NCBI GenBank assembly: GCA_035499855.1
Contig: DATJXY010000027.1
Coordinates: forward strand, 7,489-71,488
Direction of reading: 5' to 3'
DNA: 64,000 nt
Source of the DNA: Puia sp.
GTDB lineage: Bacteria > Bacteroidota > Bacteroidia > Chitinophagales > Chitinophagaceae
Made by a program: the position numbers and the translations under genes. The notes beneath the pieces are model-generated. The model saw only the letters and a program-made list of their open reading frames with translations, had not been told where the DNA came from and made no database searches. Below are positions 16,731 to 41,829 of the stretch, piece by piece. Within the stretch, counting starts at the first letter, position 1, and each line of letters starts with the position of its first letter.

Positions 16731-16745
16731 TGGCATAGTTTGTGT
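16731..16745 (+). promoter_or_regulatory. possible sigma54-like -24/-12 promoter (degenerate -12)
   Basis: TGGCATAGTTTGTGT = GG-N10-GT. Confidence 0.3.
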
Positions 16746-16756
16746 CTTTTATTTGA

Positions 16757-16960
16757 CTACAAGCTGTTTGTATATTTTTAGAATAAGATATTGATTTTTA
16801 ATCCTTTGCAAAACAGACGGTCATAACAGCATTTATTTTTAAGAATTGTTGCGTTTGAGGACGCTAAATATATTTCACTGGTTTACATGAAAAAGTCTTT
16901 TCTACGGTTTAGGGTTTAGGGGTTAAAAAGGGGGGTATTCCTACTCCCCTTCCTTTTATT
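16757..16960 (+). ncRNA. candidate sRNA A
   Basis: No convincing ORF; sigma54-like site upstream; GGTTTAGGGTTTAGGGGTT tract; terminator-like hairpin 16930-16949 with pyrimidine tail. Confidence 0.35.
16926..16960 (+). terminator. terminator-like hairpin
   Basis: GGGGGGTA-TTCC-TACTCCCC followed by TTCCTTTTATT. Confidence 0.5.
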
Positions 16961-19018: not shown

Positions 19019-20266
19019 ATGCCATCAATGAATAGAAATAAAAATATAGATTTGTCAAAGTTTTTTGTAGCCGGAATTAATTATAAAAAAACAGATACTC
19101 TTGTCAGAGGATCTTTTGCTATTGGCCTGGAACAATACGAAAGAATTCTTACTCTCGCCCCATCTTTTGGAATTAATGAGTTGTTTGTTCTTTCTACCTG
19201 CAACCGTACAGAAATATATGGCTTCGCAGAGGATGCCCGGCTACTGATTGATTTGCTTTGCACTCAAACAACGGGATCAAAAGAGATTTTCCGGGAATTA
19301 TCTTACGTAAAAAATGGCCATGCTGCAATAAAACATCTTTTTAATGTAAGCGCAGGTCTCGATTCACAAATTCTGGGAGATTATGAAATTGTAGGTCAGA
19401 TCAGGCAGGCTGTTAAATTCGCCAGAGAAAGAAAATTCGTTCATTCTTTTCTGGATAGGATGACGAATGCCGTTTTGCAATCCTCCAAATCAATCAAAAA
19501 CCAAACAGGCCTCAGTGATGGGACTGTTTCAGTTTCTTTTTCAGCTGTACAGTATATCCGTGAAAAAATTATTGATGTTTGCGATAAAAAAATATTGTTG
19601 CTGGGAGTTGGTAAAATTGGCCGTATTACATCCAAAAATCTGATTGATTATCTAGGAACCCGTAATATCACATTGATTAATCGTACTGAAGAAAAAGCAG
19701 CCGAACTGGCAAATGAGTTGGGCTTGCAATATGCTCCTGCGGATCAGATGAATCAGCACATTGCCAATGCAGATATCATCCTTGTAGCTACAAATGCTCC
19801 TGAACCTGTCATCCTGAAGAATCAACTTGAAAACAAAGGAAATAAACTGATTCTTGATCTTTCAATACCTTGCAACGTAGAGAAGGAAGTACAGGAATTA
19901 GATTATGTCAACCTGATTGATGTGGATGAATTATCCAGGCTGAAAGATGAAACCTTGCAGAAACGTGAGGCAGAAGTCCCGAAAGCAAAAGAAATCATCT
20001 CCATGCATATGGACGAACTGATAGAATGGTATGAAATGCGTAAGCACGTTCCTGTCCTGAAAGCAGTAAAAATGAAATTAAAAGAAATACATACTTCTTC
20101 TCTGTTTGTACAGCCCTCTCCCAACCAAGAAATTTTAAGTACTACTGCTGATGAAAAAATTCAGCGCGTAATAAACGGAATGGCCTCAAAAATGCGCCGG
20201 CAAAATCAACGGGGTTGCCATTATATCGAAGCCATTAATGAATTTATCGCCGGCAGTACAAACTGA
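19019..20266 (+). CDS. hemA: glutamyl-tRNA reductase
   Basis: LSTCNRTEIY, AGLDSQILGDYEIVGQ, LLGVGKIG. Confidence 0.96.
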   Translation: MPSMNRNKNIDLSKFFVAGINYKKTDTLVRGSFAIGLEQYERILTLAPSFGINELFVLSTCNRTEIYGFAEDARLLIDLLCTQTTGSKEIFRELSYVKNGHAAIKHLFNVSAGLDSQILGDYEIVGQIRQAVKFARERKFVHSFLDRMTNAVLQSSKSIKNQTGLSDGTVSVSFSAVQYIREKIIDVCDKKILLLGVGKIGRITSKNLIDYLGTRNITLINRTEEKAAELANELGLQYAPADQMNQHIANADIILVATNAPEPVILKNQLENKGNKLILDLSIPCNVEKEVQELDYVNLIDVDELSRLKDETLQKREAEVPKAKEIISMHMDELIEWYEMRKHVPVLKAVKMKLKEIHTSSLFVQPSPNQEILSTTADEKIQRVINGMASKMRRQNQRGCHYIEAINEFIAGSTN

Positions 20267-38284: not shown

Positions 38285-38827
38285 TTGGCTATTACTGCAA
38301 CATATAATGAGCAGGAACTGGTGAGTGCGTTGAGAGAGCGCGATAATCGTGCTTATAGCTATCTCTATGATAATTATTCCGGAGCATTGTACAGCATCAT
38401 TCTTCAGATTGTACAAAATACCGAATTGGCCAATGACATACTGCAGGAAGTTTTTATTAATATCTGGCGAAAGATTGAAACCTATGATGCTAACAGGGGA
38501 AGAATATTTACCTGGATGTTAAATATAGCCCGAAACGCATCAATTGATGCTTTACGTTCCAAAAGCTATCAGAATAGCATGAAAAACCAGGAATTGGGAG
38601 AAAACGTAAATAATATCGGAAGTCGTTCAACCCAAACCAATACAGATCATATTGGATTGAAAAAGACTTTGGCAAAATTGAAACCCGAACACCGGGTATT
38701 GATTGAACTTGCCTATTTTAAAGGATATACCCACGAGGAAATTGCTCAAATAGAAGATATTCCTTTGGGTACGGTTAAAACCAGGATACGGAATGCATTA
38801 TTACAGCTAAAAGAATATTTGCAATAA
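38285..38827 (+). CDS. ECF RNA polymerase sigma factor
   Basis: LQEVFINIWRKI, WMLNIARNASID, YTHEEIAQ...PLGTVKTRIR; TTG start. Confidence 0.92.
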   Translation: MAITATYNEQELVSALRERDNRAYSYLYDNYSGALYSIILQIVQNTELANDILQEVFINIWRKIETYDANRGRIFTWMLNIARNASIDALRSKSYQNSMKNQELGENVNNIGSRSTQTNTDHIGLKKTLAKLKPEHRVLIELAYFKGYTHEEIAQIEDIPLGTVKTRIRNALLQLKEYLQ

Positions 38828-38828
38828 A

Positions 38829-39647
38829 GTGAATGTACAGGATTACATAGCAAGTGGTATGATTGAGAACTATGTGCTGGGTTTGGCCAGCGCAGAGGAG
38901 AGGGCGGAGTTTGAACGGATGTCAGCTGCTCATTCTGAGGTAAGAGCTGCCCGTGAATCCTTTGAATTGATATTAGAAAAACAGTTGCAGGATCAGGCCA
39001 TCACCCCTCCGGCAAATTTGAAAAGCAAAGTATTTGCGGAGATCGAAGTAGAAAAAGATTCTCAGCAGGAAAAAATAATTCCTATCCGAAGAATTCTTCG
39101 GGTAAAAGCCAATTGGGCCCGATCGGTTGCAGCCGCAGCGATCATTCTCCTTGCCGGCAGTACAATCCTGAATTTTTATTTTTTTACCCAGTACAAAAAA
39201 TATATTAATAAATATGATGAACTGGTCGCTTCCCAAAATCAAATGGCAATAACGAACAAAACATTAGAGACAAAATTGAGTGATTACGCATCAGCGATTG
39301 GTCATATGAAAGATACCGGCATGGCATTGGTAAAAATGGTTGATGTTCCCACCAGCCCCAGCCCCGGGTGTTCAACTACCGTATATTGGGATACCCGTTC
39401 CAAAGATGTGTATCTGCTTGTAAATAATCTTCCAAAACCTGCTTCTGACAAACAATATCAGTTATGGGCAATGGTTGATGGAAAACCCGTCGATGCCGGC
39501 ATATTTGATATGAACGAAGGACTGCCCTTTATGAAAATGAAAAATATCCCGGAAGCACAAGCTTTTGCAATTACCCTGGAAAAGAAAGGAGGCAGCAGTG
39601 TTCCAACAATGGAATCCATGTATGTGATGGGCAAAGTCGCGGGATAA
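38829..39647 (+). CDS. RskA-like anti-sigma factor
   Basis: YVLGLASAEE N-terminus, one TM helix, KQYQLWA...DAGIF...FAITLEKKGGS. Confidence 0.85.
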   Translation: MNVQDYIASGMIENYVLGLASAEERAEFERMSAAHSEVRAARESFELILEKQLQDQAITPPANLKSKVFAEIEVEKDSQQEKIIPIRRILRVKANWARSVAAAAIILLAGSTILNFYFFTQYKKYINKYDELVASQNQMAITNKTLETKLSDYASAIGHMKDTGMALVKMVDVPTSPSPGCSTTVYWDTRSKDVYLLVNNLPKPASDKQYQLWAMVDGKPVDAGIFDMNEGLPFMKMKNIPEAQAFAITLEKKGGSSVPTMESMYVMGKVAG

Positions 39648-39743: not shown

Positions 39744-40133
39744 ATGAAAAATTTAAAAAAATACCTTGGTAAATTATACCTGGCAATTGGATGGTCAGCG
39801 ATCATATTTATTTTGTTATCACTCCCCGGTTCTATGATACCGAAGGAACAATCATTTATGTTACCCGGGTTCGATAAAATTGTTCATATTGGTTTGTTTG
39901 GCGGTTTTGTTTTGCTTTGGTGTTTTTATTATAGCTCAAAACGACTGTCTTCAAAAAAACAATTACGTATTTTTTTCTACATTTTTTTAATCGCCTCCCT
40001 CTATGGAATTGGAATGGAATATGTCCAAAAATACCTCATCCCTATGCGTGATTTTGACGTCGAAGATATTCTTGCTGACCTGATGGGAGCCGGACTTGCC
40101 TATGGAATTTGCAATATTAGCCTGGTCGAATAA
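39744..40133 (+). CDS. VanZ family membrane protein
   Basis: FDKIVHIGLF...YGIGMEYVQ...RDFDVEDILAD. Confidence 0.88.
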   Translation: MKNLKKYLGKLYLAIGWSAIIFILLSLPGSMIPKEQSFMLPGFDKIVHIGLFGGFVLLWCFYYSSKRLSSKKQLRIFFYIFLIASLYGIGMEYVQKYLIPMRDFDVEDILADLMGAGLAYGICNISLVE

Positions 40134-40228: not shown

Positions 40229-40260
40229 TAAAAAAATAAGCCCCTGTAGAAACAGGGGCC
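40229..40260 (-). terminator. intrinsic terminator of a minus-strand transcript
   Basis: GCCCCTG-TTTCTA-CAGGGGC followed by TTATTTTTTT on minus strand. Confidence 0.8.
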
Positions 40261-40329
40261 GTAACCAAAACTAACTGCTTATGAGAAAATTGACTGCTTT
40301 GTGTAGTCAAATAGAAAAGACAATTTGTT
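40230..40329 (-). ncRNA. candidate sRNA B (about 100 nt)
   Basis: sigma54 consensus upstream, 5' hairpin TTGACT/AGTCAA, UG-rich tract AGTTAGTTTTGGTT, strong terminator, no ORF on this strand. Confidence 0.55.
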
Positions 40330-40340
40330 GTATATATAAC

Positions 40341-40356
40341 GCAAAACAGATGCCAA
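40341..40356 (-). promoter_or_regulatory. sigma54 (-24/-12) promoter
   Basis: TTGGCATCTGTTTTGC = GG-N10-GC, matches TGGCAC-N5-TTGC. Confidence 0.6.
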
Positions 40357-40520
40357 TATTATCGGAGCTACTGTTATAGGCGTCTTAAAGAACTCACACC
40401 AAATTTACGAACACATTTAATATTTGAATTTGGAGTTCCTCTATAATAACATTTTTTTAGCGATTGCTAAGAAAATGTTAGAGAGGTTATCTTCCCGCAA
40501 AAATCAAAGAGCTCTACATA

Positions 40521-40550
40521 TTAGACGTAAAAAAAACAAGAAAGTTTACA
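40521..40550 (-). promoter_or_regulatory. ECF-sigma-type promoter
   Basis: TGTAAAC-N16-CGTCTAA (AAC/CGT consensus). Confidence 0.4.
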
Positions 40551-40626
40551 TTGTAAAGTTAAAAAATACTAAATGACTTAATTTTTTTTAACCGTTAAAT
40601 AATTCTCTAATCCTCACGGTTAGATT

Positions 40627-40764: not shown

Positions 40765-41829
40765 TTAGTTTTGTTTCGCCATCTTTTCTGCATTTTCAGC
40801 GAACTGCAATGCATCAATAAATTCCTGGATATTACCATTTAATATGTCAGTCAGATTGTAAGCGGTAAGTCCAATCCGGTGATCCGTAACCCGGCCCTGC
40901 GGAAAATTATAGGTTCTGATCTTCGCGCTTCTATCACCGGTGCTAACCAAACTTTTCCGATGCCTGGCAATTTCTTCTTCCTGCTTGCGAACCTGTTCTT
41001 CATAGAGTTTGGTGCGAAGCATCTGCATCGCTTTTTCTCGGTTACCTAACTGGGTTCTTTCGGTCTGACAAACGACCACAGTTCCAGTCGGAATATGGGT
41101 TAATAATACTTTGGTTTCCACTTTATTTACATTCTGTCCACCTGCGCCTCCACTCCTGGCAGTTTCCATTTTCACATCACTTTCCTTCAATTCAAAATCC
41201 ACTTCTTCAGCTTCCGGCATTACCGCCACGGTAGCAGCACTGGTATGGACACGCCCGCTTTGTTCGGTATCGGGTACCCGCTGAACACGATGAACTCCAC
41301 TCTCGAATTTCAGAGTGCCATATACATCATCCCCGGTTACTTCAACCTGCACCTCTTTATATCCGCCCACCGTACCTTCACTCTCGCTGAGTATAGCTGT
41401 TCTCCATCCTTTCTTTTCACTATACTTTAAATACATACGTAAAAGGTCACCCGCAAAAAGGCTTGCTTCATCTCCCCCGGTTCCCGCTCTGATTTCAAGG
41501 ATAGCATTTTTTTCATCCTGGGGATCTTTGGGAATAAGCAACTGTCGGATAGCAGCTTCCAGTTTTTCCTTTTTTTCATTTAAACCCGGTGCTTCTGCTT
41601 TAGCCAGATCTCTTAATTCTGCATCTTCTCCATTCAAAGCTTCTTTATTGAATTCGATATCATCCAGCAGCTTTTTATATTCTTCATAGGATTGAACAAT
41701 TTTTTCCAGGCTACGATATTCCTTACTCGTTTCCGTAAACTTTCGGTTATCATTAACGATATCCGGATTAGTGAGCGCCACTCCCAAATCTTCAAATCTG
41801 GCCTTAATAGCCTCCAGTTTATCTATCAT
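40765..41829 (-). CDS. prfA: peptide chain release factor 1
   Basis: [30 protein letters not shown] (GGQ), [15 protein letters not shown]. Confidence 0.97.

Follow-up and report, generated by a model that had tools for sequence, protein, structure and literature searches.

Between the convergent genes vanZ and prfA of a Puia sp. genome (family Chitinophagaceae) lies a gap of 630 bp, within which the minus strand carries a promoter-like element followed by an intrinsic terminator. Is this unit a gene for a small RNA (sRNA), and if so, what switches it on and on what does the RNA act? We addressed these questions in a 64,000-nt stretch of the genome (contig DATJXY010000027.1, positions 7,489 to 71,488, assembly GCA_035499855.1), which is called the window below and to whose numbering coordinates refer unless a contig or locus label is given. 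A first-pass annotation, made from the sequence alone, had proposed that positions 40230-40356 hold a promoter-terminator unit for a sigma-54-dependent sRNA. Block conservation, covariation and broken reading frames support the interpretation of this unit as an sRNA gene, and our analysis adds to it that the RNA is multi-copy and family-wide, that a sigma-A-type −7 box lies upstream, and that prfA appears without a terminator of its own. Judged from these sequence comparisons, positions 40329-40230 on the minus strand are very likely a real RNA gene. The reading as a whole, in which the gene represents, at the syntenic prfA-vanZ site, a multi-copy RNA family that is restricted to Chitinophagaceae, acts in trans, has a sigma-54-type promoter and is directed at susC, would have a probability of roughly 0.6.

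Conservation and structure of the RNA

The predicted RNA, its promoter and its parts are as follows.

40230-40329, minus strand: predicted sRNA of ~100 nt, with the start placed from the −12 element and the end at the last U of the terminator tail
40341-40356, minus strand: sigma-54-type promoter TTGGCAtctgtTTTGC, with the −24 GG at 40354-40353 and the −12 GC at 40342-40341
40290-40310, minus strand: 5' hairpin, in which TTGACT (40310-40305) pairs with AGTCAA (40295-40290), as RNA UUGACU-acacaaagc-AGUCAA
40290-40261, minus strand: open tract AUUUUCUCAUAAGCAGUUAGUUUUGGUUAC, read in the sequence
40283-40261, minus strand: single-stranded tract CATAAGCAGTTAGTTTTGGTTAC, read in the sequence
40263-40289, minus strand: family-wide core and putative seed UUUUCUCAUAAGCAGUUAGUUUUGGUU, from the alignment, comprising the second and third copies of the module AAGCAGUY(A)RUUUU
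40230-40260, minus strand: intrinsic terminator GGCCCCTGT/ACAGGGGCT, a stem-loop at 40260-40239 followed by the tail

A 221-nt BLAST query matched the locus in 36 of 36 genomes of the same genus. In the 29 genus loci examined, identity was 83-93% over query positions 58-191 (window 40363-40230), that is, from the promoter to the U-tail, and the flanks outside this block do not align among the loci. All positions of the sRNA are conserved, with insertions and deletions confined to the leader. The element is flanked by prfA and vanZ in 29/29 genus loci, and the conservation of promoter and terminator at the syntenic site, on which the first-pass annotation had staked its proposal, holds in the order prfA, RNA, vanZ in all of these and in most family loci (prfA, vanZ or both were found within 1.5 kb in 46 of the 53 sigma-54-class loci of the family). 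Beyond the genus, the exact 20-mer TCATAAGCAGTTRGTTTTGG from the core occurs in more than 120 contigs of a species-representative collection, nearly all of them labelled Chitinophagaceae or its genera; the named matches include Ferruginibacter, Sediminibacterium, Niastella, Niabella, Terrimonas, Chitinophaga, Puia and Flavihumibacter. Two cultured strains, Terrimonas ferruginea DSM 30193 and Niastella yeongjuensis DSM 17621, are among them.

Collection by this exact 20-nt core pattern gave 162 copies, from which 150 distinct sequences were aligned. In the alignment, the terminator stem was paired in 96.2% of cells, compensatory double changes were observed in 8 of its 9 pairs, and the covariation score was reached by 0 of 500 shuffles; shifting the pairing register made the support collapse. 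The terminator loop GUUUCYAC is likewise conserved. A covariance model built from this alignment (R1) scored 97.2 bits on the window copy (E = 1.9e-24). When Chitinophagaceae were searched with a covariance model, a check that the first-pass annotation had named, 14 of the 17 genomes sampled gave strong matches (E < 1e-17); at E <= 0.001 a genome had between 1 and 7 matches, most Chitinophagaceae having 2-7 copies. Matches elsewhere in the order were only weak, and none of 293 genomes from other Bacteroidia families had a match at E <= 1e-5. A looser pattern found the core in 65 of 81 Chitinophagaceae genomes (80 genera). At the gathering score, 0 of 4,227 Rfam families matched, and the weak Rfam matches (PrrF, MicX, JA04) rest on the terminator. 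The best of these, PrrF (RF00444), was rejected, as it reached 26 bits (E = 0.057) compared to a gathering score of 90 bits and its alignment consists of the terminator and the U-tail.

No conserved reading frame was found in the element. The plus strand has a 32-codon ATG frame at 40281-40379, which we rejected as coding, as it stops after 6-8 codons in several relatives and is frameshifted in others. The earlier statement that the minus strand has no open reading frame was literally incorrect, given the 37-codon TTG frame at 40310-40197; this frame passes through the terminator into flanks that vary among relatives. Two points weigh against too simple an acceptance of the gene. Terminator-like sites, if taken alone, are not enriched in the 2-kb region (3 vs. 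1.8 expected), and the constancy of 20 nt in the 'invariant' core follows from collecting the copies with exactly that pattern, although model-based matches with divergent cores gave the same core consensus. In this genome promoter and terminator matches by themselves are no better than chance; the support for the gene comes from conservation and covariation.

Read 5' to 3' on the minus strand, TTGGCAtctgtTTTGC (40356-40341) is followed by a variable 19-nt leader, the hairpin, the open tract, the terminator and the U-tail. Counting the C of the GC as −12, promoter geometry predicts a start at ~40329, in agreement with the start proposed earlier. The small hairpin TTGACT...AGTCAA (40310-40290) and the tract CATAAGCAGTTAGTTTTGGTTAC that had been pointed out are both there, and so is the terminator with a U-tail ending near 40230, which covaries and has 9 pairs, not the 7 originally given. 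Its stem-loop reads GGCCCCUGU-uucu-ACAGGGGCU (40260-40239; 6 of the 9 pairs are G-C, and the loop has 4 nt), the tail is UAUUUUUUU (40238-40230), and the U-run TATTTTTTT stops at 40230. The predicted fold of the sRNA has −26.2 kcal/mol (z = −4.7). Among 27 genus sequences, the arms of the 5' hairpin are invariant and its loop is variable, with no covariation in the hairpin; the 5' arm is missing from many family members. In the consensus genus fold the core is mostly open, apart from a weak invariant 6-bp stem-loop inside it, and the minimum-free-energy fold of the window copy pairs the core partly with the 5' leader. Genus RNAs hold two or three tandem AAGCAGUY(A)RUUUU modules (in the window, module 2 at 40299-40281 and module 3 at 40280-40261), and the RNA seems to grow through duplication of this seed module. 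Some genus relatives (loci L008, L010, L018, L125) have three tandem modules, compared to two and a degenerate first in the window copy.

Sigma-54-type promoter and upstream elements

The boxes TTGGCA (40356-40351) and TTTGC (40345-40341) have exactly the GG-N10-GC spacing that had been noticed at first pass. The sigma-54 consensus is TGGCAC-N5-TTGCW, with GG and GC exactly 10 nt apart, and the window site, TGGCAT-CTGTT-TTGC-G, matches it at 9 of 10 positions. GG, GC and their spacing are kept in 29/29 genus loci, with a variable spacer (CTGTT, CCTGT, TTGAA, CTCGA), and the stretch from the −12 element to the conserved RNA varies in length and sequence. Family-wide, a GG-N10-GC site with at least 8 of 10 consensus bases was found within 160 nt upstream, on the sense strand, in 77 of 162 copies, compared to 0 of 162 in an equal length downstream and 2 of 162 on the antisense strand. 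These sites lie 50-74 nt before the CAUAAG of the core, so that a start ~12 nt after the GC would give RNAs of ~80-105 nt. Their position-wise profile is tAT-TGGCA-.c.g.-TTTGC-GTTAT, and their information profile is TGGCA..c.g.TTTGCGTTAT.

The genome has one rpoN gene (PF04552, 182 bits, 494-aa open frame), so that the proposal does not fail for want of this sigma factor, and seven strong Sigma54_activat matches that denote enhancer-binding proteins (E < 1e-65). Since every one of 81 family genomes has rpoN, its co-occurrence with the RNA is uninformative. A loose scan of the genome returned about a dozen other intergenic sigma-54-like sites, which places the sRNA site among the best in the genome.

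Further elements lie upstream.

40372-40394, minus strand: promoter-proximal elements, with AGTTCTTTAAG at 40394-40384 and the TTAACA-like ATAACA at 40377-40372, 16 nt upstream of TGGCA
40400-40407, minus strand: sigma-A-type −7 box TAAATTTG, a perfect match to the Bacteroidota motif TAnnTTTG, ~45 nt upstream of the sigma-54 site
40444-40470, minus strand: conserved upstream block TTAGCAATCGCTAAAAAAATGTTATTA with the inverted repeat TTAGC/GCTAA, from the genus alignment
40514-40566, minus strand: conserved upstream block TTTTTTAAC-N9-TAAACTTT ... ACGTCTAATATGTAG, from the genus alignment

The explanation that competes best with sigma-54 control accepts the RNA as real and derives it from the sigma-A-type promoter at 40407-40400, from prfA read-through with processing, or from both, in which case TGGCA-N6-TTGC would be an operator or part of a longer RNA. 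In 28 of 29 genus loci, a TAnnTTT[GA] box precedes the sigma-54-like site by 40-110 nt, and paralogues have sigma-A-type −7 boxes. The prfA gene is on the same strand as the sRNA, with conserved synteny, and a terminator scan recognised no minus-strand terminator between the prfA stop and 40260; the first terminator downstream of prfA on its strand is that of the sRNA, ~500 nt away, and prfA transcripts may run through the sRNA gene. Given the −7 box and the missing prfA terminator, longer forms that do not depend on sigma-54 are possible, which speaks against a simple sigma-54 control, as do three other observations: the base after the −12 GC is G, where the consensus has A or T; TGGCAY-N5-TTGC has 6 sites in this 4.5-Mb genome compared to ~11 expected, so that a single site is not above chance; and we found no family-wide motif for an activator site at a fixed long distance, where sigma-54 promoters typically have such sites ~80-200 bp upstream. 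On the other hand, the conserved letters of the promoter are exactly the sigma-54 contacts (TGGCA, TTGC) at an invariant spacing, with the excess over the control counts given above (77/162 vs. 0-2/162), and outside the genus only 9 of 59 sigma-54-class loci of the family have a −7 box at that distance. As RNA, the promoter element could form a 3-bp stem at most. The hsp20-linked and phage copies described below are without the element and keep the core, so that the element behaves as an exchangeable promoter, not as a functional part of the RNA. We consider an origin without sigma-54 unlikely, and transcription driven by sigma-54 probable.

The two promoter types may also be combined. The conserved AGTTCTTTAAG falls where a transcript from the −7 box would begin, and a second promoter at this box, giving a transcript of ~165 nt, is possible; a sigma-A and a sigma-54 promoter may thus serve the gene in tandem. 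No 6-mer is commoner than TTAACA in the sequences that precede the two promoter classes, and in 49 of 78 sigma-54-class copies it stands at a fixed 16 nt before TGGCA. All promoter classes of the family are preceded by TTAAC(A/G) boxes, which form direct repeats ~12-22 nt apart before sigma-A copies and occur singly before TGGCA. The block at 40444-40470 is a candidate binding site for a regulator or activator, and the TTAAC(A/G) boxes and the genus blocks, which can also be written TTAGCAATCGCTAA..ATGTTATTA and TTTTAAC-N9-TAAACTTT..ACGTCTAATAT, are probably regulator sites.

The other intergenic sigma-54-like sites of the genome include C13:5157(-), C47:48073(+), C54:47500(+), C89:43167(-) and C116:2207(-), none of which has a TTAACA box. 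By the look of their N-termini, the genes behind them resemble those for a membrane protein of 892 aa, a transporter of the NRAMP type, and efflux components of the HlyD and TolC kinds, and these sites may outline a sigma-54 regulon.

Predicted targets

The reverse complement of the core, AACCAAAACUAACUGCUUAUGAGAAAAUU, resembles a Bacteroidota leader with its start codon. We ranked 3,426 gene starts (−30 to +18, from crude calls of open reading frames) by their pairing with the core. Starts of SusC-type genes (TIGR04056), which encode nutrient transporters of the outer membrane, had ranks 3, 12, 14, 23, 67, 364, 515 and 879, plus 2,875 for a partial match. Four of these nine starts are among the top 30 (hypergeometric p = 6e-7; Mann-Whitney p = 1.6e-4). 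The top 50 contain 4 SusC-like genes with the real seed, compared to 0-1 with twelve shuffled seeds that keep CAU, and 28 signal-peptide-like starts, compared to 9-19 with shuffled seeds and a background of 35%. We repeated the comparison with 28 susC start regions, 2 of this genome and 26 of 12 other genera. For half of them the pairing was better than in at least 95% of 200 shuffles, and for 9 it surpassed every shuffle, whereas only 7.2% of 656 background genes from the family loci reached the 95% level. Typical susC leaders read ..AACCAAAACUAA.. and ..ACUGCUUAUG...

Several results weaken this assignment. Four of the nine SusC-type starts pair poorly (rank 364 or lower), the gene starts are approximate because they come from crude calls, and the SusC category was picked partly after the top hits had been seen and by analogy to the Bacteroides sRNA FopS. 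Over ~15,000 candidate starts, RNAduplex gave the same energy distribution for the real seed as for shuffled seeds, and across the whole genome contiguous runs that include G:U pairs were no longer than those of reversed or shuffled seeds. Watson-Crick runs gave one outlier, of 17 nt, compared to a maximum of 15 nt for shuffled seeds; it covers the start codon of a gene for a lipoprotein of 167 aa (C28:57739-57755, plus strand). We rejected this gene as a conserved target, as the pairing is kept only in the closest of 10 matches in other genomes, and it would be a lineage-specific target at best. Weighing both sides, we lean towards SusC start regions as the main targets, and the enrichment at SusC starts makes occlusion of the susC translation-initiation region the likeliest mechanism.

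The same features could also come about if the RNA were a protein decoy like CsrB/RsmZ or CrcZ, whose tandem modules titrate an RNA-binding protein, such as one with an RNA recognition motif (RRM), and whose complementarity to susC follows from shared recognition. CrcZ is a sigma-54-dependent protein decoy. The two or three repeated modules would fit, as would the ~27 nt that are kept family-wide, which is long for a seed, and the conserved terminator loop; the genome encodes four small RRM proteins, while Hfq, ProQ and CsrA were not found in it (for Hfq by tblastn), and FopS binds the RRM protein RbpB (PMC11697453). However, the RNA is antisense to susC leaders and does not look like them, and a leader-binding protein is not expected to bind it. 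The specific enrichment of SusC starts is a prediction of base pairing, and Bacteroidota sRNAs with seeds of 30-50 nt are known. A decoy is, in our view, quite improbable.

Proposed mechanism

Under the reading that we prefer, an antisense RNA directed at susC, sigma-54 RNA polymerase would start near 40329 after activation by one of the seven enhancer-binding proteins, perhaps bound at the conserved upstream blocks, and the sigma-A-type promoter 45 nt further upstream and prfA read-through may add longer forms. The single-stranded core AAUUUUCUCAUAAGCAGUUAGUUUUGGUU would pair with susC/ragA-type mRNAs (AACCAAAACUAA..CUGCUUAUGA) across their A-rich leader and start codon at the 5' end, and possibly with other mRNAs for exported proteins, and would so prevent the initiation of translation, the effect that FopS and GibS have in Bacteroides. 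An RRM protein might assist or oppose the pairing. Sister copies that have the same core behind other promoters (sigma-A with TTAAC repeats, hsp20, phage genes) could bring other signals to the same targets.

Other copies of the family

Other copies in the same genomes have only the core and the terminator in common. In the sigma-A class, a TAnnTTTG −7 box follows two or three TTAAC(A/G) boxes spaced by ~12-22 nt, and tandem copies occur. A G-variant class reads ..GCAGUUGGUUUUGG.. and, in most cases shown, directly follows an open reading frame ending ..LNLPKKEE... This genome has a second copy, with the G-variant core UCAUAAGCAGUUGGUUUUGG (C115:38358-38447, minus strand; L051; 57.7 bits), which follows an Hsp20 gene (Pfam PF00011, 3e-20) at a distance of ~100 nt; this position suggests a heat- or stress-linked copy of the 3'-untranslated-region (3'-UTR) type. 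The hsp20-type arrangement recurs in many other Chitinophagaceae.

The exact 20-mer was also found in 31 viral contigs of IMG/VR (L264-L294), in each case with the terminator and never with a sigma-54 site (for example L291 2272-2291, L267 9916-9935 and L274 12073-12092). Several of these copies (L267, L268, L277) stand directly after the stop of an open reading frame, and the neighbours in three viral contigs that we inspected include endolysin, exonuclease, integrase and tail proteins. GenBank phage records gave no match. That phage-borne copies lower SusC-type receptors is speculation. Taken further, the family could be a mobile 'anti-SusC' module, in which one antisense core has been placed by bacteria and phages behind different promoters (sigma-54 with an activator, sigma-A with TTAAC repeats, hsp20, phage late or lysogeny genes). 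We regard this extension as a long shot; if true, transporter supply would be tied to an envelope or nutrient signal through the chromosomal sigma-54 copy, and the phage copies would lower receptor-type porins and so exclude superinfecting phages. As its reverse complement reads as a leader followed by AUG-AGA-AAA (Met-Arg-Lys), the core may, on this view, be an inverted copy of a susC 5' end.

The idea that there is no RNA gene here and that the element is a conserved bidirectional terminator or insulator with adjoining DNA-binding sites, to which its position between the convergent prfA and vanZ and the restriction of structural covariation to the terminator would conform, is hardly tenable, given that the T-run tail is on the minus strand only and that the invariant 27 nt before the stem recur, each time behind a separate promoter, at numerous unrelated sites as well as in tandem arrays and phages.

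Genomic setting

The neighbours of the sRNA are as follows.

40765-41829, minus strand: prfA, peptide chain release factor 1 (Pfam PCRF 6e-74, RF-1 2e-39), upstream of the sRNA on the same strand
39744-40133, plus strand: vanZ-like gene (Pfam VanZ 4e-8), convergent with the sRNA

Directly upstream of vanZ, at 38285-39647 on the plus strand, are genes for an extracytoplasmic function (ECF) sigma factor (180 aa, 38285-38827) and an RskA-type anti-sigma factor (272 aa), for which we found no connection with the sRNA. Elsewhere in the window, the family model has one weak match at 20075-20181 (minus strand; 12.4 bits, E = 0.37), where AAUUUUUUCAUCAGCAGU is present and the 3' half differs; this match is probably due to chance. 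The model gave no match at 16731-16960, the other candidate of the first-pass annotation.

Comparison with known systems

The closest functional parallel is found in Bacteroides thetaiotaomicron, in which occlusion of translation initiation has been demonstrated for FopS-10 on susC (BT_3983) and for GibS, and long AT-rich seeds and RRM proteins (RbpB) take the place of the arrangement of short seeds and Hfq (PMC11697453, PMC7366714). Like FopS and GibS, the RNA described here belongs to the phylum Bacteroidota and to a multi-copy paralogous family with both intergenic and 3'-UTR-type copies. It has a long AT-rich single-stranded seed directly before the intrinsic terminator, and pairing around the susC start codon, shown for FopS, is here predicted statistically. 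A FopS sequence occurs in a phage and copies of the Chitinophagaceae family in phage contigs, and here too RRM proteins are encoded and Hfq was not found. Unlike FopS and GibS, the family has Chitinophagaceae as its only hosts, its seed is in the middle or 3' part of the RNA and not at the 5' end, and its syntenic copy has a sigma-54-type promoter, compared to a canonical sigma-A promoter for FopS and 'PM2' for GibS. There is no relationship by sequence or model: the FopS model has been deposited in Rfam (PMC11697453), and both FopS and GibS are absent from the matches of the window even at E <= 10. The Chitinophagaceae family and the FopS system of gut Bacteroides seem to have separate origins, in which case control of susC translation by sRNAs would be a recurrent solution in the phylum.

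Qrr1-5 of Vibrionaceae (RF00378) are similar in length (~100 nt), in having several copies per genome and a sigma-54 promoter, and in an identical stretch of ~30 nt that is shared by all copies and followed by the terminator. They differ in that the RNA has no match to RF00378, Hfq was not found here, no LuxO or quorum-sensing context is known, the predicted targets are others, and only part of the Chitinophagaceae family has the sigma-54 promoter. The proteobacterial RybB, MicA and MicL are envelope-directed, sigma-E-dependent sRNAs; they are driven by an alternative sigma factor, as is probable for our RNA, and the latter is likewise predicted to lower abundant outer-membrane proteins by pairing in the start region, with one copy linked to the stress gene hsp20. 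The sigma factor, the phylum and the chaperone differ, and there is no homology. The guide RNAs of dCas12f-sigma-E systems are another non-coding RNA of Bacteroidota tied to susCD operons, and here, too, an ECF sigma gene is nearby; these guides have a structured scaffold and a variable 14-nt guide at the 3' end and are encoded beside rpoE-dcas12f (PMC13472631). We rejected this identity, as the core is invariant here and followed by the terminator, and the neighbours are the ECF sigma factor, the RskA-type anti-sigma factor and VanZ, with no Cas12f-like gene adjacent.

Literature searches returned no earlier study of RNA regulators in Chitinophagaceae, no described sRNA of this family and, for Bacteroidota, neither a sigma-54 sRNA nor an sRNA with a sigma-54-type promoter. 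As polymer degraders, Chitinophagaceae are abundant in soil, freshwater and the rhizosphere, and, if our reading is true, the RNA would be a post-transcriptional brake on their SusC-type transporters. The RNA family also offers a handle on a poorly known sigma-54 regulon, with one promoter and seven candidate activators, and the invariant 27-nt core eases the design of knock-downs, reporters and probes in cultured Chitinophaga, Niastella, Terrimonas, Flavihumibacter and Sediminibacterium. By sequence and by structure model the family belongs to neither FopS/GibS nor Qrr; the likeliest role of the RNA is that of a translational repressor in the manner of FopS, made from a promoter like that of Qrr.

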